A DNA stretch of 6,850 bases from a virus. The position numbers were made by a program, and so were the translations under genes. The notes below the pieces were generated by a model. The model saw nothing but the letters and a program-made list of their open reading frames with translations. It did not search any database and had not been told where the DNA came from. Positions 1 through 6,850 of this stretch are shown piece after piece (positions within the stretch are counted from its first letter, which is position 1; each line of letters starts with the position of its first letter). Location: the IMG/VR virus record IMGVR_UViG_3300038543_000040, positions 1 through 6,850 of that record; one strand, given 5' to 3'.

Positions 1-49
1 ATTTATTAATAGATCACTTTAGGAAATTGAATCAATCGGGGGGCAATTC
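1..49. repeat. Left copy of the exact 49-nt terminal direct repeat (identical to 6802-6850)
   Basis: Base-by-base comparison: atttattaatagatcactttaggaaattgaatcaatcggggggcaattc occurs at both ends. The window ends inside the right copy, so the true repeat length is unknown. Confidence 0.95.
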
Positions 50-115
50 AGCGCTAGAACGTGGGGGGGCGGAGCACCCCAGTTCCGCTGGGCTGTTGGC
101 TGTTGGTGATTAGGT

Positions 116-153
116 AAAAAAAAATTCCCGCGAAGCTGGCAGGCTTCCGGGAA
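116..153 (-). terminator. Intrinsic-terminator-like hairpin read on the minus strand; it could instead be an ssDNA origin hairpin
   Basis: On the + strand an A9 run (116-124) precedes the hairpin TTCCCG-c-GAAGC / loop TGGCAG / GCTTC-CGGGAA (125-153), an 11-bp stem with one bulged C. On the minus strand this reads as a GC-rich stem-loop followed directly by T9. No T-run follows it on the + strand. Confidence 0.5.
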
Positions 154-183
154 CGTGAGCACGTAACAATTGAAAGGTTTCAC

Positions 184-1059
184 ATGCTGGAAAAGATTGT
201 AAACGGAATGCGGTTTGAAGGGTCAATATCTGATAACTGCTACGACGTTCGGACTTGGACTTGTAACGGTGTCACTGAGCGTTCCGCTCGTCGTGTCATT
301 GAATGGCAAGAGTCAAGCCTCATTGAGGGCGGCTACAAGGACATTCCGTATGAGATTGACCCCGAACGTGATGCCGACTACCTCGCAGAGCAAAAAGAAA
401 AAACGTTGCGGGCGAATGCTCGTAGGGCGAAAACAATGGTTCGTCGATTCATCATTTCAGAGAATTTCAACGAAATGTTGACTCTCACATATCGGGAGAA
501 TCAGCCCGATAGGGCATTGTGTAAAAAGCACTTTTCGATCTGGTCTAAGCGCATGAAACGGGCCTTAGGTGAGTTCCGCTACTGTGCAGCATTTGAAGTG
601 CAGGAGCGGGGATCAATGCATGTGCATTGCGCTACAAATAAGCTCCCTACTCATGCCAAATACAAGGGTGTCAAAATCAAGGCGTGGCAGTTGGGCACGG
701 CGATATGGCGTGACATTGTGGGGGCTGATAACGGGCTTTGCTTCGTCGGTGCTGCTCCGTCCAAGTGGGGCAGTTCCCGGCGCAAAAACCTGTCACTGGC
801 AAAAATGGCGTCTTACGTCTCCAAGTACATCCTCAAGGATTTCGCTGCTGCACCTGAGGAAAGCAACCGCTACAGTCGTTCAAACGGCAAACCGGGGGGT
901 GAGGTACACACCTGCCGTTTAAATGGCACCTTGCCCGAAATAATAGCCTGCGCGTTTGAAGTTGGCGAGGGTGATGTAATCGTCTCGCATCATGCGTCAT
1001 CACTCGGTTTCGGCTGGTGGCTCTGCACTGAAAAGCGCCCTCCTGATCACTATTGTTGA
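184..1059 (+). CDS. Rolling-circle replication initiator, HUH endonuclease superfamily (functional analogue of pII)
   Basis: 291-aa ORF. AAAGG lies 6 nt upstream of the ATG. Three RCR motifs appear in order: MLTLTY (aa 98-103), HUH-type MHVHCAT (aa 145-151), and the two-tyrosine motif YVSKYILK (aa 211-218), which resembles the YVAKY arrangement of phiX174 gpA-type Reps. Confidence 0.8.
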   Translation: MLEKIVNGMRFEGSISDNCYDVRTWTCNGVTERSARRVIEWQESSLIEGGYKDIPYEIDPERDADYLAEQKEKTLRANARRAKTMVRRFIISENFNEMLTLTYRENQPDRALCKKHFSIWSKRMKRALGEFRYCAAFEVQERGSMHVHCATNKLPTHAKYKGVKIKAWQLGTAIWRDIVGADNGLCFVGAAPSKWGSSRRKNLSLAKMASYVSKYILKDFAAAPEESNRYSRSNGKPGGEVHTCRLNGTLPEIIACAFEVGEGDVIVSHHASSLGFGWWLCTEKRPPDHYC

Positions 1060-1089
1060 TTTGTGACAATCACCCTCAAGGGGGGTGAT

Positions 1090-1674
1090 ATGCGGCGCAT
1101 AGGGTATGCCAGAGTTTCTACGCTTGAACAGTCAACAGCATTGCAAATTTCGGCGTTTTCCAAGCACGGTATCACCCGGATTTACTCTGAGAGTCAGTCG
1201 AGTGTGAAACGGCGTCCAGTTCTGGATTCGCTGCTTAAAGAATTGAGGGCAGGTGATACCCTCTACGTTTACAAGCTGGATCGGCTCGCTAGGTCAATGT
1301 CGCACTTCGTGCGCATCTTTGAGCAATTGAAAGCTAAGCAAGTCGGCTTCAAGTCTCTGACTGAATCAATCGAAACGGAAACACCTCAAGGTCGGTTGTT
1401 TCTTCAAATGCTCGGTATCTTTGCGGAGTTTGAGCGAGAGCTAATCCGGGAACGGTGCTTAGCGGGTCAGCAGGCTGCGAGGGCACGGGGGAAAACATGG
1501 GGCCGTGTGGCCATGTTCACGCCATCTGAGGCAAAAAAGCTGGCAAAGATTTGGCGCTCCGGTGTTGAGCAAAAGCTGCTCGCGGATATGTTCGGTTGCT
1601 CTGTTGCCTGCCTTCGTGACTCAATACACCGCGCAGAGAATCGGGGCCGTTGGAAAAACGCGACAACGAGATAG
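1090..1674 (+). CDS. Small serine recombinase (resolvase/invertase family) with a C-terminal HTH
   Basis: I chose the ATG at 1090 over the GTG at 1063 in the ORF track. This gives the canonical N-terminus MRRIGYARVSTLEQ with the catalytic Ser at position 10, and a G-rich SD (AAGGGGGG, 1078-1085) sits just upstream. DRLARS and the E-helix region LQMLGIFAEFERELIRERCLAGQQAARARGK are present. The C-terminal part, LLADMFGCSVACLRDSIHR, looks like an HTH. Confidence 0.85.
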   Translation: MRRIGYARVSTLEQSTALQISAFSKHGITRIYSESQSSVKRRPVLDSLLKELRAGDTLYVYKLDRLARSMSHFVRIFEQLKAKQVGFKSLTESIETETPQGRLFLQMLGIFAEFERELIRERCLAGQQAARARGKTWGRVAMFTPSEAKKLAKIWRSGVEQKLLADMFGCSVACLRDSIHRAENRGRWKNATTR

Positions 1675-1938
1675 TTTTTTGTAAAGTGATGTAAGTTGTT
1701 TCAAAAGCCTGTCCTTGATCGGGCTTTCTGGTTCTGCTTCCATGGCTGCGGTCGCTATCCATTGGATCGGATTTTCTCCCAATTTGATAGCTATAGCTCC
1801 AGCAACTCCGGGGGCTAATCTTCCTCTGTGCTTTGCTACCGCTAGTGCACTTCTTGATAGTTTTAACTCTTTGCACCATTGCTCGGCTGATGGTTGCATT
1901 TCTAACGCTCTGTTTAGAAGTTCCATTGTTTTGCCCAT
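1621..1938 (-). CDS. HTH DNA-binding protein, probable phage immunity repressor or regulator
   Basis: 105-aa ORF. A strong SD (AAAGGAG, complement of 1944-1950) lies 5 nt from the ATG at 1938. It has an HTH-like segment, EQWCKELKLSRSALAVAKHRGRLAPGVAGAIAIKLGENPIQWIA. It is divergent from the structural operon and adjacent to palindromic operators. Its 3' end overlaps the recombinase 3' end by 54 nt. Confidence 0.65.
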   Translation of the reverse strand: MGKTMELLNRALEMQPSAEQWCKELKLSRSALAVAKHRGRLAPGVAGAIAIKLGENPIQWIATAAMEAEPESPIKDRLLKQLTSLYKKLSRCRVFPTAPILCAVY

Positions 1939-1979
1939 AGCGGCTCCTTTGGTTGTTGACAGACTGTAATCTTTTCTTG

Positions 1980-1996
1980 CCTTACTGGTAGTAAGG
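1980..1996. promoter_or_regulatory. Operator-like palindrome O1
   Basis: CCTTACT-GGT-AGTAAGG has perfect 7-bp arms. It matches the site at 2013-2029 at 16 of 17 positions. Confidence 0.6.
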
Positions 1997-2012
1997 GCTT
2001 AGGATTCGGGCA

Positions 2013-2029
2013 CCTTACTGGTTGTAAGG
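2013..2029. promoter_or_regulatory. Operator-like palindrome O2
   Basis: CCTTACT-GGT-TGTAAGG has arms matching at 6 of 7 positions. Its centre is 33 bp from the centre of O1, about three helical turns. It overlaps the minus-strand TTGACC hexamer. Confidence 0.6.
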
Positions 2030-2051
2030 GTCAACAAATGGAGTAGTCACC

Positions 2052-2255
2052 ATGCAAGATTTAAAGTTTTCAACCCCAGCGAAGCGGGACAAGTTTCTGA
2101 AGTCCATCGCAAAGCACAAAGCGCGCATAGCCGCGAAACATTGTGATTTATTCGCCCGCCCGTTGTTCGAAAACAGCAATGGTCGTTGTGTGACTACTCC
2201 TCCGGCGCTCGGGGTAACGGTCGGGCACCCTTCTACGTCAAAGGCTGCTGTGTGA
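2052..2255 (+). CDS. Hypothetical small basic protein, first ORF of the rightward operon
   Basis: 67-aa ORF. GGAG (2040-2043) lies 8 nt upstream of the ATG. The N-terminus is Lys/Arg-rich (KFSTPAKRDKFLKSIAKHKARIAAKH). I recognise no motif. Confidence 0.4.
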   Translation: MQDLKFSTPAKRDKFLKSIAKHKARIAAKHCDLFARPLFENSNGRCVTTPPALGVTVGHPSTSKAAV

Positions 2256-2323
2256 GAGTTCCCGGAATGCTTCGCGTGCGGATCATTCGGGGCAACTTTC
2301 GCCCGTAACCCTAAAGGCAAATC

Positions 2324-2638
2324 ATGTCGTTTTCATCAACTATTCAAGTGCTTCTCGTTTCCATTGAGGAAAAGAAAAATCGGGAGGGTGGCACCTACAC
2401 CAAACGCACGGCGGAATGCATCCTCCTTGAGGATGACGGATCAATCAATGCGTGTGGCTCCATGCGTCTTAGTGAGGATTTGGCTAAGGATTTGAAGCCG
2501 GGCACGTATCGGGCTGGCTTCTCCATGGTGCGTTCAACCTTTGGTGATACCAAGGGCGAATTGGTATCCCGGCTGGTGAGCCTGACTCCCGCTCCAGTTC
2601 GTGCCGCTCCCGCTGCTGGCAAGTCTGCAACCGTCTAA
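2324..2638 (+). CDS. ssDNA-binding protein (pV analogue, Pf3-like pattern)
   Basis: 104-aa ORF with AAAGG 6 nt upstream. It lies upstream of the coat gene module, as in other inoviruses. The residue pattern (IQV...GGTY...LLEDD...C...PGTYR...G.GEL) resembles my recollection of the Pf3 78-aa ssDNA-binding protein. It has an Ala/Pro-rich C-terminal tail. Confidence 0.6.
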
Positions 2639-2648
2639 GGGGAACGTC

Positions 2649-3074
2649 ATGCGCCAATCTGGTTTTACTCTCATTGAACTGATGGTGGTCGTTGCCGTTA
2701 TCGGCATCTTGGCTGCTGTGGCCCTTCCCGCATATCAAGACTATGTGACTAAAGGTCGCGTAATGGATGCGGTTTCCATGTCATCCCCAGCGCGTACAGC
2801 CATCGCTCTTGCCTGTTCTGAGGGGTCGATCAGCACGGCGACAAACAATGCCAGTCTCGGCCTTGAGCCTGCGAACACTTACAACAGCAAAGCGGTTTCC
2901 GCTATGGCTGTCGTTGGCCTTAATCCCAACTCGGCGGCTATCACCCTGACCATGAAAAAGCTAGGTGACTTGCCTGCCGGGTCAACCCTTGTCTATACCG
3001 CCACTTGTGGGCCTTCTGGCACCTTGTGGGCAGTGGGGGGAACACTACCGCTCAAGCTACATCCGAAAACCTAA
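2649..3074 (+). CDS. Type IVa prepilin-like protein (class III signal peptide, N-methylation motif)
   Basis: The ATG at 2649 has an SD (AAGGGG, 2637-2642) overlapping the TAA stop of the upstream gene. The N-terminus MRQSG|[28 protein letters not shown] is a textbook short-leader prepilin: Gly-1, Phe+1, Glu+5 and the conserved alpha-1 helix. It is 141 aa with two Cys (ACSEG, TCGPSG) and a pilin-like C-terminus (LPLKLHPKT). The GTG start at 2601 in the ORF track would add 16 residues before the leader and is unlikely. Confidence 0.85.
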
Positions 3075-3081
3075 CCTGAGT

Positions 3082-3097
3082 GCAGGGGAAACCCTGC
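3082..3097 (+). other. Short GC hairpin downstream of the pilin gene
   Basis: GCAGGG-GAAA-CCCTGC, a 6-bp stem with a GAAA loop. No T-run follows. A second weak hairpin lies at 3111-3130. Function unknown; possibly an mRNA stabiliser or attenuator. Confidence 0.3.
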
Positions 3098-3164
3098 GTG
3101 AGGGCATAGCGAAAAGGGTCATCCCTTCTCGGTGCGCCTTTGCACTGTTCAACGGAGATTCAAG

Positions 3165-3377
3165 ATGAATCGTTCTCAAGTTCAAGCCGTTTCGGCTTCT
3201 GTGGCTACTGGTGTTTTGACCCTCTCGACTCAAGCCCATGCGGCCTTGCCTGCTGGTGTGACCACTGCGATTACTGATGCTGGTGCCGATATGGTTACGG
3301 CGGTGACTGCGATCATTGTGGCTTTTGTCGCTTTCTGGGGCCTGCGTAAGCTCGGCTCCAAATTCGGCTGGATTTAA
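3165..3377 (+). CDS. Major coat protein (pVIII-like) precursor
   Basis: The ATG at 3165 has GGAG 7 nt upstream. The protein is 70 aa. It has a signal peptide ending AHA|A. The predicted 44-aa mature protein, ALPAGVTTAITDAGADMVTAVTAIIVAFVAFWGLRKLGSKFGWI, has the canonical layout of acidic N-terminus, hydrophobic core and basic C-terminus. Confidence 0.85.
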   Translation: MNRSQVQAVSASVATGVLTLSTQAHAALPAGVTTAITDAGADMVTAVTAIIVAFVAFWGLRKLGSKFGWI

Positions 3378-3385
3378 TGGGCCTT

Positions 3386-3408
3386 CCGGGGGGTTTGCCT
3401 CCCGGTTT
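3386..3408 (+). terminator. Possible leaky terminator or attenuator after the major coat gene
   Basis: CCGGGGG-gtttgc-CTCCCGG forms a 7-bp stem with one G-T (G-U) pair, followed by only TTT. The position after the coat gene parallels the Ff arrangement. Confidence 0.35.
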
Positions 3409-3411
3409 CCT

Positions 3412-3690
3412 ATGGCAAAAGTCCAAATCGTGGCCTGCATTGCAGCGCCAAACATTACGACAAGCACATATAGCTCGTGGTGCCCCGCTGCTAGTCGGCG
3501 GATTCTTGTTGTCGATGACGTGGTGATTCAGGGGACAACCCTCGAAGTTCAGGCAACGGCTGAACCTGTTGATCCTGATCGCGTTGCGGATATGGCTGCT
3601 CTGTTCGGTTTGTTTATCGGCGTTCTTGTCATTGTTTGGGGTTCCAAGCAACTGCTAAACCTGTTCTCCGGTGATATAGAAAAGGGGTGA
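3412..3690 (+). CDS. Hypothetical membrane-anchored small protein (possible minor virion or assembly protein)
   Basis: 92 aa from the ATG at 3412. The C-terminal hydrophobic segment is MAALFGLFIGVLVIVWGSKQLL. There is no clear SD. The TTG start at 3316 in the ORF track overlaps the coat gene and is unlikely. Confidence 0.5.
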   Translation: MAKVQIVACIAAPNITTSTYSSWCPAASRRILVVDDVVIQGTTLEVQATAEPVDPDRVADMAALFGLFIGVLVIVWGSKQLLNLFSGDIEKG

Positions 3691-3694
3691 TTTC

Positions 3695-3763
3695 GTGGTA
3701 CTCCCTCTTGAATACATGATTGCTTTTGGCCTGATGCTGTTGCTGTACGTGGCCTTCAAATGA
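3695..3763 (+). CDS. 22-aa hydrophobic micro-ORF (pVII/pIX-like candidate), absent from the ORF track
   Basis: The GTG at 3695 lies 7 nt after the SD AAAGGGG (3681-3687). Translation is (M)VLPLEYMIAFGLMLLLYVAFK. Its TGA stop (3761-3763) is embedded in the ATGATG start of the pIII-like gene, which has no SD of its own; this suggests translational coupling. An alternative in-frame ATG at 3716 would give 15 aa. Confidence 0.45.
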   Translation: MVLPLEYMIAFGLMLLLYVAFK

Positions 3764-5187
3764 TGCAATTTTTTTTCTTGCCGTTGCTGCTTCTCCTGCT
3801 GCTGCTGAGCGGTTCTCCTGCCTTTGCCGCATATCAAACGGGCGCGGCTCCGACTTTCGTTTTTAGCTCAAACTCTGCCGGGGGCACAGTGGTAACTAAC
3901 TCCACAATCCCGGTGACAAAAAAGGCAGTCGTTAAGGTTGTCGGCTCTGGTGGTGGTGCTGCCTACACTGGCGCGGCTGGTGCCCTTTCTGGTTCTTCCG
4001 ATTTTGCTCGGCTTATGTCGATGCCTCTCAATGGTGGTAAAGGTGTCGAGTTCGGCGGGAAATATAACTATGCGCCTAGGGTGTCCACACCAAACACCAC
4101 AATTCCGATTTCTGTCGTTCAAAAGGTGCCTTTTAAGTCTGTAGCTAAGGCGCTCCTTCGTTCTCTGCCGGGTATCGGCACGGTTTATGTTCTGGGTGAG
4201 TTGGCCGATGAGTATGCAAGGCATGGCAATGAAGTTGATCCCCATGAAAATAGCCCTTGGACTGTTGAGCAAACTCCTACAGGCTGGACTGTTACCCGCG
4301 ATGAGACTGTCGATCAGGCTTATTTGAATAGTGGCGCTGGGCCTTATGAGTCACCCGGCACGGCCTGTACTGCCTTGGCTGAATCCATGGCTTGTCATGA
4401 TCCTGGCTGCGAACCTCCTCCCTCTTTGACTGCTATCGACAACCGTCCCGCTGTCTATTCGTTTTCCTGTGCGCTCAGTTCTGATCTGAGTCAAATTGCA
4501 GGCGGTGGCGTCATACAACAGCAAGTTCAAAAAATTCCGCTCCCTGAAAGTGTGATTGACGATGAGATTCAGCCCGATGGTGACCCGGCTCCGGGTGTTG
4601 CTGATGGGATTGTGATGGATGCTTTGCGTGGTAATGCGCCTTGGCAGTTGGAAATACCCGACTCGCCGGCTCCTGAAGTCACGGGGCCGGGTACTGTCTC
4701 TAACTCTGTCGTCACAACGACAAACGCGGCGGGAAACACTGTCACCAATACAACCGTGACAACGATCAATTACAACGACAACCGGGTGACCGTCAACAAT
4801 ACAACGACAACCGTCACCAAAAACCCCAGCGGGACAACAATCCCCAATGATCCCGCTGATGTTCCTGCTGATGAGACAAGCGCAGAGCCTGAGCCTCCTA
4901 CTGATCTTTGCAAAGATCACCCGGAGATACTGGCCTGTCAAGAGCTTGATACTCCTTCGGATGAGCCTATCCCGAAAGATACTCGAAACATTACCCTGCA
5001 AACTGGCCCTACATTCGGCGGTGGCGGCTGTATCCCTGACGTTGTGGTCAATGTCGGCGGTCAGCAAATTACGGTTTTGGCTATGACCGTTCCCTGTGGC
5101 TGGATCGAAAACCTTCTTAAACCTTTCATCCTGCTGATTGCCACTATTTCAGCGGTTTATATCGTCATGCCTCGGGCTGGGGATTAA
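3760..5187 (+). CDS. Adsorption / minor coat protein (pIII-like)
   Basis: 475 aa. The signal peptide is MMQFFFLPLLLLLLLLSGSPAFA|AY. N-terminal domains are followed by a Thr/Asn-rich low-complexity linker, a Cys-containing domain, and a C-terminal membrane anchor (LLKPFILLIATISAVYIVMPRAGD). It sits between the coat and pVI-like genes. Confidence 0.75.
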   Translation: MMQFFFLPLLLLLLLLSGSPAFAAYQTGAAPTFVFSSNSAGGTVVTNSTIPVTKKAVVKVVGSGGGAAYTGAAGALSGSSDFARLMSMPLNGGKGVEFGGKYNYAPRVSTPNTTIPISVVQKVPFKSVAKALLRSLPGIGTVYVLGELADEYARHGNEVDPHENSPWTVEQTPTGWTVTRDETVDQAYLNSGAGPYESPGTACTALAESMACHDPGCEPPPSLTAIDNRPAVYSFSCALSSDLSQIAGGGVIQQQVQKIPLPESVIDDEIQPDGDPAPGVADGIVMDALRGNAPWQLEIPDSPAPEVTGPGTVSNSVVTTTNAAGNTVTNTTVTTINYNDNRVTVNNTTTTVTKNPSGTTIPNDPADVPADETSAEPEPPTDLCKDHPEILACQELDTPSDEPIPKDTRNITLQTGPTFGGGGCIPDVVVNVGGQQITVLAMTVPCGWIENLLKPFILLIATISAVYIVMPRAGD

Positions 5188-5189
5188 TC

Positions 5190-5477
5190 ATGGGCCTTGC
5201 TGGTTTCCTTCTTGCGTTGGTGCAACCGATAGTTGCAAGGGTTCTCGTTGCCCTTGGTTTCAGCCTTGTGACCTATGTTGGCATGGATGTAATGATGGGG
5301 CAGGTTACGGCTGCGGCCTTGGCTGCTTGGGGTGCCCTTCCCGCCAATCTTTTGCTGCTGGCTGGCCTTGCTGGTATCGGTCAAGGGCTGGCTATCATCT
5401 TCGGGGCTATCGCAACCCGTGTGCTGATTTGGCAGTTGACCAAATCGACCCGGATGCTTATGAGCAATCCCGGATGA
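5190..5477 (+). CDS. pVI-like minor coat / membrane protein (DUF2523-like)
   Basis: 95 aa, very hydrophobic, with about three predicted TM segments. GGGGA lies 6 nt upstream. The stop overlaps the Zot-like start (ATGA at 5474-5477). The position immediately before the Zot-like gene is canonical. Confidence 0.6.
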   Translation: MGLAGFLLALVQPIVARVLVALGFSLVTYVGMDVMMGQVTAAALAAWGALPANLLLLAGLAGIGQGLAIIFGAIATRVLIWQLTKSTRMLMSNPG

Positions 5478-6553
5478 TTACCCTGATCACTGGCACGCCA
5501 GGGGCCGGAAAAACCCTCTATGCGGTGTCCAAGCTCCTGCGTGATTTGGTCGGGACAACCGTCGATAAATCAAACGATGACGGCACAGTCACCAAAATCA
5601 CCCGGCGCATCCTGACCAATATCAATGGTCTGCTGCTCGATCATGAATTGATCAATGCTGATGCTGGCGGCGGTCTTGCTGATTGGCATCTATGGGCTAA
5701 ACCCGGTGATGTGATCGTTTACGACGAGGTGCAAAAGCCATGGCCACCAAGGGCTAACGGCTCGAAAGTACCCGACTACATTCAAGGGCTTGAGACGCAT
5801 CGTCACATGGGTGTTGATTTCATCCTGTTGACACAAAACCCGATGCTGATTGACCGTAACGTTACGGCGCTCGTCGGTCGTCATCTCCATGTGAGGCGGT
5901 TCGGTGCCATGGGTGCCGCTATCGTCTATGAATGGGATCATTGCTCCCGTAGTCTGCTGTTTTCCAAGTCAATAGCTAAAGCGCCTTGGAAATATGACAA
6001 GTCAGTTTACAAGCTGTACAAGTCTGCCGAACTGCACACAAAACCGAAAACCTCTATTCCCACTTTGGCCTTTGTTGTAGTCGGTGCCATTGCTGCGGCG
6101 GCTTATTTCATTCCCTCGGCTGCGGATCGCATCATGTCTCATGGCGACAAGGCAAAGATAGCGGGTAAGCCTGCATCGTCCCCAGTCACCCCAGCAAGTG
6201 CCTCCCGGCCTGCTGTAGGCGCTTCCGGGCCTGTGCTGATGGTGTCGGCTAAGCCTGACAAGATCGTTCATCCTACTCTTGCCGTTGGCCTTGATCGCGT
6301 GCGGCTGGTCGGCATGTCTACCTTTAACAAAGTGACAACCTACTTTTTTCAATCGGCTGATGGTCAACACGTCACATCGTTTGATCTGGTTAAAGTCGGC
6401 TATCGTTTCTCTGATCCTGTGGGCTGTTCCGTCAAGGTCGAAACCGACTCGGAATCCCGGCACTTCTTGTGTGACCCTCGCCCATTCGATCAGCCTCCCG
6501 CTCTGCCTGGCATGACTGCGGCGTCATCTACTGTTCAGAGTCCTTCCCTCTGA
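5474..6553 (+). CDS. Zot-like / pI-like phage assembly ATPase
   Basis: The ATG at 5474 gives MITLITGTPGAGKTLYAVS, with the Walker A motif near the N-terminus as in Zot/pI proteins. A Walker B-like motif is VIVYDEVQ. It has a single TM segment (IPTLAFVVVGAIAAAAYFIP), then a Pro/Ser/Ala-rich linker and a C-terminal domain. 359 aa. Confidence 0.85.
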   Translation: MITLITGTPGAGKTLYAVSKLLRDLVGTTVDKSNDDGTVTKITRRILTNINGLLLDHELINADAGGGLADWHLWAKPGDVIVYDEVQKPWPPRANGSKVPDYIQGLETHRHMGVDFILLTQNPMLIDRNVTALVGRHLHVRRFGAMGAAIVYEWDHCSRSLLFSKSIAKAPWKYDKSVYKLYKSAELHTKPKTSIPTLAFVVVGAIAAAAYFIPSAADRIMSHGDKAKIAGKPASSPVTPASASRPAVGASGPVLMVSAKPDKIVHPTLAVGLDRVRLVGMSTFNKVTTYFFQSADGQHVTSFDLVKVGYRFSDPVGCSVKVETDSESRHFLCDPRPFDQPPALPGMTAASSTVQSPSL

Positions 6554-6610
6554 CATTTTCCTTTTGAATACAAACGGAAGTTATTGAGTGAGACAAGCGA
6601 ATAGCGTAAG

Positions 6611-6657
6611 TCGAACGGCGGGGGTATGGGGGTACGTCCCCCATGGTCAACCGTCGA
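6611..6657 (+). other. Compound stem-loop in the intergenic region (candidate packaging signal or complementary-strand origin)
   Basis: The outer stem is TCGA(a)CGG / CCGTCGA (6611-6618 with 6651-6657). The inner perfect stem is ATGGGGG / CCCCCAT (6626-6632 with 6638-6644) with a TACGT loop. Confidence 0.45.
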
Positions 6658-6768
6658 TCAATCTCGTACCCGGCCCACTGGGTGCAACTTCATCACCCCA
6701 TGACATTTTCAATTTCACGCGCACCCTGCTGCGGTGTCGAGCGGTCGCGTCATCGTGTCACGCGTCTT

Positions 6769-6800
6769 GTGCGCGTGCGCGATGCGCGAAGCGCGAGCGT
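6769..6800. repeat. Tandem GCGCGA-type heptamer array (iteron-like) abutting an AT-rich block
   Basis: gtgcgcg tgcgcga tgcgcga agcgcga gcgt gives 3-4 contiguous copies of (T/A)GCGCGA. An AT-rich stretch follows immediately (6801-6837, equivalent to 1-36). Confidence 0.5.
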
Positions 6801-6801
6801 A

Positions 6802-6850
6802 ATTTATTAATAGATCACTTTAGGAAATTGAATCAATCGGGGGGCAATTC
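6802..6850. repeat. Right copy of the exact 49-nt terminal direct repeat (identical to 1-49), truncated by the window end
   Basis: See the feature at 1-49. Confidence 0.95.

Follow-up and report, generated by a model that had tools for sequence, protein, structure and literature searches.

A prepilin gene in the ssb-to-coat interval of a complete inovirus

We analysed a stretch of 6,850 nt, corresponding to positions 1 to 6,850 of the IMG/VR virus record IMGVR_UViG_3300038543_000040 and hereafter called the window, focusing on a gene at 2649–3074 (+ strand) that encodes a type IVa major prepilin of 141 amino acids (aa), a phage-borne PilA. The two ends of the window overlap exactly over 49 nt, the bases 6802–6850 being a copy of bases 1–49 left by the assembly, so that the genome is circular and measures 6,801 nt; the same molecule was recovered in a separate Logan assembly of SRR5416889. 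The window is a complete inovirus with a circular genome of ~ 6.8 kb, and all its genes lie on the + strand except a repressor-like one. The pilin gene follows that of the single-stranded DNA-binding protein (ssb, the gene V analogue; 2324–2638, + strand; PHROG 2866, 5.9e-6), which has homologues at the same position in related inoviruses, and precedes that of the major coat protein CoatB, which carries a signal peptide (3165–3377, + strand; Pfam PF05356, Phage_Coat_B, 6.5e-6; PHROG 7106, 1.2e-10). A first-pass annotation of this DNA had proposed an intact type IVa prepilin gene between a filamentous phage's ssb gene and its major coat gene, and the Pfam and PHROG matches together with the circular genome bear this out.

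The same annotation described the gene as operonic, and the junctions on both sides agree with it. The list of open reading frames (ORFs) starts the pilin at an upstream GTG (2601); the ATG at 2649 was used instead, and a Shine-Dalgarno-like TAAGGGGA lies 6–11 nt before it and overlaps the ssb stop codon TAA (2636–2638), the whole stop and ribosome-binding site reading TAAGGGGAACGTC (2636–2648, + strand). Downstream, the pilin stop and the coat ATG at 3165 are separated by exactly 90 nt. This spacer forms the structured leader of the coat gene (3075–3164, + strand; predicted fold of -40.3 kcal/mol, z -3.84), and read-through into the coat gene is expected since it holds no T-run. A consensus scan of the window found no terminator-like site between ssb, pilin and coat, and matched, by consensus only, a GC hairpin with a T-rich tail 3' of the coat gene (3386–3405, + strand; 8-bp stem with 7 GC pairs). 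We infer that the pilin is transcribed with the ssb and coat genes as a unit ending at this hairpin. In Ff phages, expression is highest for the block running from gene V to gene VIII, and by analogy phage production is probably accompanied by abundant synthesis of the pilin.

In relatives without the pilin, the ssb gene is directly followed by a conserved coat leader made of hairpins and a GGAG motif, while in pilin carriers this leader follows the pilin; the position of the leader thus places the pilin after the stop of ssb and ahead of the coat leader. The layout of a long hairpin, a short hairpin and GTTCAAC..GGAG..ATG is common to the relatives, with or without a preceding pilin, as compared at 3075–3164 of the window, L171:5900-6015, L180:5750-5860, the start of L132 and L006:1340-1450. 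This structured leader may be an RNA processing or stability element; an Rfam scan of the window matched no family.

The first-pass annotation had also pointed out that the phage Pf4 carries at this very position the small protein PfsE, which blocks type IV pili. The position, between ssb (PA0720) and coaB (PA0723), is the one indicated by gene numbering. The function is documented, PfsE (PA0721) being a 30-residue exclusion factor that binds PilC and targets the pilus (PMC8764522). Other occupants of the slot were found in some relatives that lack the pilin, in the form of single-helix membrane proteins of 60–91 aa. Slot proteins were located at L154:1291-1518, L192:5205-5435, L188:5291-5509, L148:4727-5067 and L231:1345-1620, and by visual comparison L154 and L192 have similar ones. 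The proteins of 60–91 aa may be PfsE-like cargo directed at the envelope, and the junction of ssb and coat thereby appears to serve as a cargo slot for envelope-acting factors.

The pilin and its phage-resident lineage

Family matches span nearly the whole protein. Pfam PF07963 (N_methyl, residues 1–26, 3.7e-9) and PF00114 (Pilin, residues 35–140 of 141, 2e-7) both lie above their curated cut-offs, and NCBIfam TIGR02532 scores 35.5 bits for a cut-off of 16.3. As first read, the N-terminus combines a class III signal with the pilin alpha-1 helix: MRQSG|FTLIE comprises a short leader ending in Gly-1 (MRQSG, 2649–2663, + strand) and a mature protein that starts from Phe+1 (2664) and holds Glu+5, in agreement with PF07963, TIGR02532 and the modelled helix described below. 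Gly14, Pro22, Tyr24 and Tyr27 can be read in the mature sequence, and an alignment of 61 homologues places Gly-1, Phe1, Glu5, Gly14, Pro22, Cys56 and Cys120 at invariant or nearly invariant positions. The full pilin length, Cys pair and pilin-like C-terminus reported earlier are likewise recovered, with PF00114 reaching residue 140, Cys56/Cys120 and a C-terminal K-x-L-P-K.

Searches retrieved 7,711 homologues at E<=1e-3, the best being full-length PilA proteins of Burkholderiales (Comamonadaceae, Rhodoferax, Oxalobacteraceae) with 49–59% identity, and the nearest solved relatives by sequence are the pilin of PAK and PilE of the gonococcus and the meningococcus. An AlphaFold model built from 61 sequences (mean pLDDT 92) predicts the alpha-beta fold of pilins, with the alpha1 helix at residues 8–58, whose hydrophobic alpha1-N runs on into an amphipathic alpha1-C, and a four-stranded antiparallel sheet (strands 83–92, 95–102, 113–121 and 124–131) that packs on alpha1-C. 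Among structures of the PDB at E<=0.001, Foldseek returned type IVa major pilins only (1ay2, 8p3b, 1oqw and 5vxx), with an E-value of 3.3e-6 for 1ay2 and a TM score of 0.70 for 5vxx; against the viral structure predictions of BFVD, nothing was returned at E<=0.001. Homology and predicted fold extend over the whole protein and are not restricted to an N-terminal helix, the outcome that the first reading had named as fatal to its claim. A type II pseudopilin (GspG/GspH) was considered and rejected, TIGR01710 scoring 29.8 bits against a cut-off of 88.85 and TIGR01708 35.2 against 80, with matches limited to the N-terminal 36–38 residues. By all these features of sequence and modelled fold the product is a type IVa major pilin, for which processing and polymerisation are predicted. 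It resembles cellular PilA and PilE in its length, its leader ending in Gly, its Phe1, Glu5, Gly14 and Pro22, its long-range Cys pair and its C-terminal motif, but is encoded in a 6.8-kb inovirus instead of a pil locus and falls in a phage-only branch.

The pilin is not unique to the window. A homologue with 55% identity (P0011) lies in a second inovirus, L004, which has a different type of Rep (Phage_CRI) and the pilin at the same position, and a scan of IMG/VR added two further complete inoviruses with the gene, L006 and L007 (identical to L132, circular with a 31-nt overlap). In a neighbour-joining tree P0002 groups with these pilins, and it is also phage-borne (L246-249, five contigs from different samples); the adjoining branches P0031 and P0087 are chromosomal, with a Wzy_C ligase and minor pilins, or glycosyltransferases, nearby. 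A profile built from five phage pilins was searched against 5.8 billion proteins and matched 12 clusters at 214–251 bits, the next ones scoring at most 191 bits and being followed by ~ 1,300 further, cellular pilins. The contigs of all 12 clusters measure at most 7.6 kb, and the five that were looked up among the seven new clusters all belong to inoviruses (L254, L255, L256-258, L259 and L260) with ssb-like proteins of 106–111 aa. The order ssb, pilin, CoatB was found in an inovirus context in all ten cases checked (the window, L004, L006, L132, L246, L254, L255, L256-258, L259 and L260). Our survey of related inoviruses, a check suggested by the first-pass annotation, hence counts at least ten carriers with the gene in the same slot.

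Tree support for this group is uneven, with a neighbour-joining bootstrap of 62% for a set of eleven that contains the window, falling to 24% once the divergent P0123 is added, and monophyly of all 12 phage pilins was not retained at this last value. The lineage is for this reason supported mainly by the gap in profile scores and the uniform phage context, which indicate that the pilin gene marks a phage-resident lineage of at least ten inoviruses and not a single capture. Phage copies differ from one another by pN values of 0.09–0.2 and by pS values of 0.62–0.75, at which synonymous sites are saturated; the resulting dN/dS of ~ 0.1 or lower indicates that the phage pilins are under purifying selection. 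Identity among them reaches 68–85% in the N-terminal 53 residues and 34–69% in the exposed globular domain, and this association of a conserved helix with a variable globular domain is the usual pilin pattern.

Two clade-specific features set the phage copies apart. In the C-terminal K-[YF]-L-P-K motif, a Tyr or Phe follows the Lys in 166 of the 171 cellular homologues and a Leu in 7 of the 12 phage copies, the window included, and the Ser/Thr content is lower in phage pilins (0.23 vs 0.27 in cellular ones, p 1.5e-5). Pilins of the phage clade end in K-L-L-P-K/R-V and that of the window in K-L-H-P-K-T (3054–3071), while 94 of the 171 cellular homologues end in Ser or Thr. The C-terminal change and the low Ser/Thr content would fit an altered or unglycosylated surface, or a binding epitope, and may reflect one of these. 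A difference in charge between phage and cellular pilins, as looked for under the rule derived from phage MDA, was rejected (p 0.38); the net charge of the exposed part is +4 in the window pilin and -2 to +2 in the other phage pilins.

Sequence comparisons between carriers reveal mosaic genomes in which the pilin is found on differing replication and morphogenesis modules. For instance, the window and L006 share 81% identity in Rep, 71% in the recombinase and 52% in ssb and have different morphogenesis modules, and the pilin globular domains of L004 and L255 are 74% identical for a Zot identity of 36%. The N-terminal ~ 200 aa of the adsorption protein g3p (window 3835–4434; L006, L256, L004, L246) are hypervariable, with 17–38% identity. 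In L006 and L256, g6p and Zot are 77–88% identical despite divergent g3p N-termini, which suggests a rapid turnover of the receptor-binding domain of g3p. Loci with two inovirus morphogenesis modules on one contig were also met (L089, L101, L159 and L219), of different type and on opposite strands in L089, of the same type, in tandem and on one strand in L101 and L159. Such contigs may stem from concatemers or from prophages lying in tandem or side by side, and would be a likely setting for the exchange of modules.

The gene remains rare, as a set of 160 Zot-related loci, made up of 80 from IMG/VR and 80 from GTDB genomes, holds a single carrier, L132. The remaining 159 have no pilin, their ssb gene either abutting the coat leader or preceding small membrane proteins. 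Prophage relatives reside in Hydrogenophaga, Simplicispira, Polaromonas, Paracidovorax/Acidovorax, Rhodoferax and Lampropedia, a distribution that agrees with the affinity of the pilin for PilA of Comamonadaceae. Other small IMG/VR contigs with pilin-like genes were rejected as carriers, since terminase, portal or clamp-loader genes nearby showed them to be pieces of tailed phages. Many tailed-phage contigs (L024, L036, L072-L075 and others) carry genes with a prepilin-type N-terminus, some of these contigs being T4-like with sliding-clamp or clamp-loader neighbours, and this agrees with PHROG 3433 'pilin'. In addition, L030:1-495 (IMGVR_UViG_3300048848_000277) holds a different PilA-like gene at the contig edge, convergent with the recombinase gene of another inovirus at a distance of 75 nt. 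Its product has four Cys and 38% identity to the window pilin, and the gene may be either the pilA of a host next to an integrated prophage or another, independent pilin association.

Proposed function and competing explanations

Pilins carried by tailed phages and archaeal viruses are already known, the idea having been published in 2025–2026, and two phage-pilin families, 27437 and 3433, exist in PHROG. In siphophage prophages of Pseudomonas, the minor, tip-located pilin P-FimU was tested experimentally and enters the pili, which keep their function, and blocks phages that bind there (PMC12952977). The same study describes PilA-like genes carried by Xylella prophages and by virulent phages of four groups, for which it predicts the same role, reports ~ 50% identity between Xylella P-PilA and the host PilA, a figure near that of the window pilin, and notes truncated, N-terminal-only PilA genes of Pseudomonas phages that were suggested to inhibit assembly (PMC12952977). 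The window pilin shares with P-FimU and P-PilA its nature as a phage-encoded homologue of a structural subunit of the type IV pilus, the high diversity of its copies, whose exposed parts vary while the assembly interface is kept, and the proposed logic by which a receptor component is swapped for a functional phage version. By contrast, P-PilA occurs in tailed phages of unrelated types, and the window pilin in inoviruses, in a fixed slot between ssb and coat and in a lineage of its own.

The first-pass annotation knew of no characterised inovirus with a full pilin. This part stands, as we found no report of an inovirus pilin in the literature, the phage list of PMC12952977 (Table S3) being outside this survey; phage pilins as such, by contrast, have precedents (PMC12952977, PMC12426801, PHROG 27437/3433). 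Searching the pilin by tblastn against 50,697 GenBank phage records gave no match at 1e-3, the sole hit beyond this limit being an unrelated Salmonella prepilin (E 0.02), an absence that is weaker than it appears since the low-complexity filter probably masks the N-terminal helix; this search also returned none of the 190 records of the same collection that were found with Zot. New here is that filamentous phages carry a major pilin, which occupies a fixed slot and constitutes a lineage of its own.

Type IV pili commonly serve as the receptor of filamentous phages. Starting from the established identity, intactness and position of the gene, its modelled fold, its membership of a phage lineage and the purifying selection acting on it, we infer the processing of the protein, its assembly into pili, its high expression and an exclusion effect along the following path. 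Co-transcribed with the ssb and coat genes, the pilin would be abundant whenever the phage is active. The prepilin would enter the inner membrane, where the host prepilin peptidase would cleave it after Gly-1 and methylate Phe1, and the host type IV pilus machinery would polymerise it, alone or mixed with host PilA. Pili of the infected cell would gain a different shaft surface, to which phages that require the shaft, whether kin inoviruses or competing pilus-specific phages, would bind less well, and their infection or superinfection would be blocked. The pilus itself would stay functional, unlike with PfsE-type inhibitors, which abolish piliation. We tentatively prefer this reading of the gene, i.e. 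a working major pilin that alters the shaft of the host pilus and replaces the receptor, and rate it as quite possible, a little short of probable.

Our preference is based on the precedent of P-FimU (PMC12952977), on the shaft binding of MDA (PMC12819557) and on the place of PfsE in the Pf4 slot (PMC8764522). The phage MDA, a TspB-type inovirus, binds the shaft of the pilus through its capsid, and its infection depends on the major pilin variant (PMC12819557). PfsE and the window pilin have in common that they are products of inovirus accessory genes acting, or expected to act, on the type IV pilus, at a position that gene numbering makes the same. They differ in that PfsE, an inner-membrane peptide of 30 residues marked by the motif YxWGW, acts by binding PilC and leaves cells without pili (PMC8764522), and that the window pilin is a protein of 141 aa that does not contain YxWGW; on sequence grounds the two appear analogous in position and probable purpose, and not homologous.

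Several observations weigh against receptor replacement. The role of the pilus as receptor of these phages is deduced by analogy with their relatives, and the high expression of the pilin from gene order and consensus scans. Every carrier is a metagenomic contig, with none in an NCBI genome, and the rarity of the gene (1 of 160 related inoviruses) indicates that this phage group does not generally resort to it. The exposed part of the phage pilins has the same net charge as that of cellular pilins, and the window pilin, the most positive of the phage set, would under the MDA rule favour the binding of phages and not a block. The pilin does not track the adsorption protein either: L006 and L256 have pilin globular domains that are 79% identical and g3p N-domains that are 30% identical, and the divergences of the two correlate with a Spearman rho of 0.52 over 21 non-independent pairs from seven phages. 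A co-variation of pilin and g3p had been suggested by L004 and L246, in which the backbone is 85–93% identical, the pilin domain 50–56% and the g3p N-terminus 33–44%; it was dropped as evidence, the relation being weak over the seven phages and contradicted by L006/L256. Since pilin divergence does not follow that of the g3p N-domain, there is no sign of a specific pairing between pilin and adsorption protein.

The pilin could alternatively serve the host through lysogenic conversion, by improving adhesion, aggregation, biofilm formation or twitching or by providing antigenic variation, with any effect on phage entry being secondary. The archaeal pleolipovirus SNJ2 offers a model, as its host-captured pilins PilA1 and PilA2 pass through the host assembly machinery to become the dominant filaments at the surface, favour biofilm formation and motility, act as receptor for another virus and are dispensable for SNJ2 itself (PMC12426801). 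Like the window, SNJ2 is a virus that carries host-captured pilins, as do many related proviruses, but these are archaeal pilins in an archaeal virus, with several independent captures. Benefit to the host would also agree with the accessory character of the pilin (1 of 160 relatives), with its intactness under purifying selection and with the changes in twitching and pili that Ralstonia inoviruses, the nearest cultured ones (~ 38% Zot identity), are reported to cause on infection (PMC3816273). However, homologues are common in Burkholderiales and the presumed host would normally already have pilA, so that a second pilin needs a specific advantage, and the location in the ssb-coat unit links expression to phage production and not to host regulation. 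We consider such a benefit unlikely as the chief role of the gene, and it is compatible with receptor replacement instead of excluding it.

A dominant-negative action, in which an excess of the pilin would jam the assembly platform or cap the pili and, as with PfsE, lead to loss of piliation and superinfection exclusion, appears improbable. The slot matches that of PfsE in Pf4, relatives without the pilin hold single-helix membrane proteins of 60–91 aa there, and strong co-expression with the coat gene is expected. The N-terminal-only PilA genes of Pseudomonas phages, with their suggested inhibition of assembly, would also fit (PMC12952977). Jamming, however, would need only the N-terminal helix, whereas selection has preserved the entire globular domain along with its Cys pair and the surface motifs specific to the clade, and Glu5, Gly14 and Pro22, the residues of polymerisation, are all kept.

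Roles tied to the biology of the particle, in which the pilin would prime or open the host secretin, cap the virion or form pili that bind the capsid laterally, are improbable when taken together. If true, a particle-coupled pilin would represent a cellular filament subunit recruited into the assembly or spread of a filamentous virus. One form of this idea is that fibres of phage pilin bind the phage's own capsid, producing a matrix of virions and pili that aggregates cells or retains virions near kin. It could draw on the lateral binding of the MDA capsid to the pilus, which depends on the major pilin variant (PMC12819557), on the adjoining and predictably co-transcribed pilin and coat genes, and on the charges of the window, where the exposed part of the pilin is at +4 and the mature coat N-terminus has two Asp and no basic residue. 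Progeny caught on the producer's own pili would, however, be wasted virions and an invitation to superinfection, the other phage pilins have charges of -2 to +2 like the cellular ones, and coat and pilin divergence are weakly related (rho 0.31). We regard this coupling as very unlikely.

The other form is a morphogenesis or egress factor, either as part of the virion, an option listed in the first-pass annotation, or as a short pilus-like primer that opens the secretin of the host pilus. Ff phages encode their tip proteins gVII and gIX in the corresponding slot, inovirus coat proteins and pilins alike reside in the inner membrane as helices until assembly, and no pIV secretin gene was found in the ORF list of the window or by a Pfam scan of its proteins. 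Yet 159 of the 160 related inoviruses, also without a secretin, manage without a pilin, and the pilin outlasts swaps of the morphogenesis module, as in L004 and L255 (74% identity in the globular domain, 36% in Zot), which argues against a specific fit to the assembly proteins; a virion or egress role is highly unlikely on these grounds. A core inovirus virion protein of gVII, gIX or gVIII type was rejected as an identity for the product, the gene being absent from 159 of the 160 Zot-related loci and persisting across exchanges of the morphogenesis module. Finally, a functionless pilin, recently captured from a host pilA or produced by a chimeric assembly, can practically be dismissed: phage genomes do acquire host genes and all known carriers are metagenomic contigs, but the genome is circular and was assembled twice, ten independent phages share the gene and its slot, the protein is conserved despite saturation at synonymous sites, and the nearest cellular pilins are just 49–59% identical.

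To our knowledge, filamentous phages block superinfection by switching pili off, as PfsE does, and we know of receptor replacement with function kept only for the minor pilin of tailed Pseudomonas prophages. A complete major pilin in a block of probable high expression suggests another tactic, in which the receptor is re-clothed and still works. If true, receptor replacement by the phage pilin would be extended to the major pilin and to inoviruses, the phage group with the biology most tightly bound to type IV pili, in a form that is directly testable. It would also offer a compact system of ~ 6.8 kb and 12 genes for the study of foreign pilin entry into the pilus, and a phage route by which pilin variants affecting adhesion, biofilm and phage sensitivity could spread in environmental Burkholderiales.

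Other features of the genome

The gene order of the window, Rep-(recombinase)-ssb-coat-g3p-g6p-Zot, is shared with Ralstonia RSS/RSM, Neisseria MDA/Nf and metagenomic Burkholderiales inoviruses. Its Zot is ~ 38% identical to the RSS type of Ralstonia and 56% identical to that of Dulem virus 61. When the whole window was compared with GenBank phages, megablast returned nothing and blastn just a 59-nt match in Zot.

Upstream of ssb, a rolling-circle replication initiator Rep of the G2P-like, REP_ORF2-G2P type is encoded at 184–1059 (+ strand; Pfam PF23343, 1.7e-14; PHROG 3419, 6.5e-36), followed by a serine recombinase of the resolvase/invertase type, a probable integrase (1090–1674, + strand; Pfam PF00239, 9.7e-41; PHROG 125, 5.6e-58), whose start at 1090 is the one called in L001. 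The gene of the repressor-like DNA-binding protein (1621–1938, - strand) diverges from the late genes, and its product matches PHROG 31301 'DNA binding protein' (2.1e-23) and no Pfam family. A repeat search revealed two copies of the palindrome CCTTACTGGTnGTAAGG at 1980–2029 (1980–1996 and 2013–2029), between this gene and the first late ORF at 2052; they resemble the operator sites of a lysogeny switch and may be putative operators. This first late ORF (2052–2255, + strand) was called in both assemblies and encodes 67 aa, with no family match.

Beyond the hairpin that follows the coat gene, a 92-aa protein with a C-terminal membrane helix (3412–3690, + strand; gene call of L001) matches no family and is by its position a probable minor virion protein. 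The next gene (3760–5187, + strand) encodes a g3p-like adsorption protein, as judged from position and size, with a signal peptide and a C-terminal anchor; its Pfam match to TspB is weak (0.0063, below the cut-off), and its homologues in L254 and L256 match PF05616 (TspB family). The morphogenesis module is completed by a g6p-like minor coat protein with DUF2523 (5190–5477, + strand; Pfam PF10734, 1.3e-16; PHROG 1242) and by the Zot/pI assembly ATPase (5474–6553, + strand; Pfam PF05707, 1.2e-23, and gene call).

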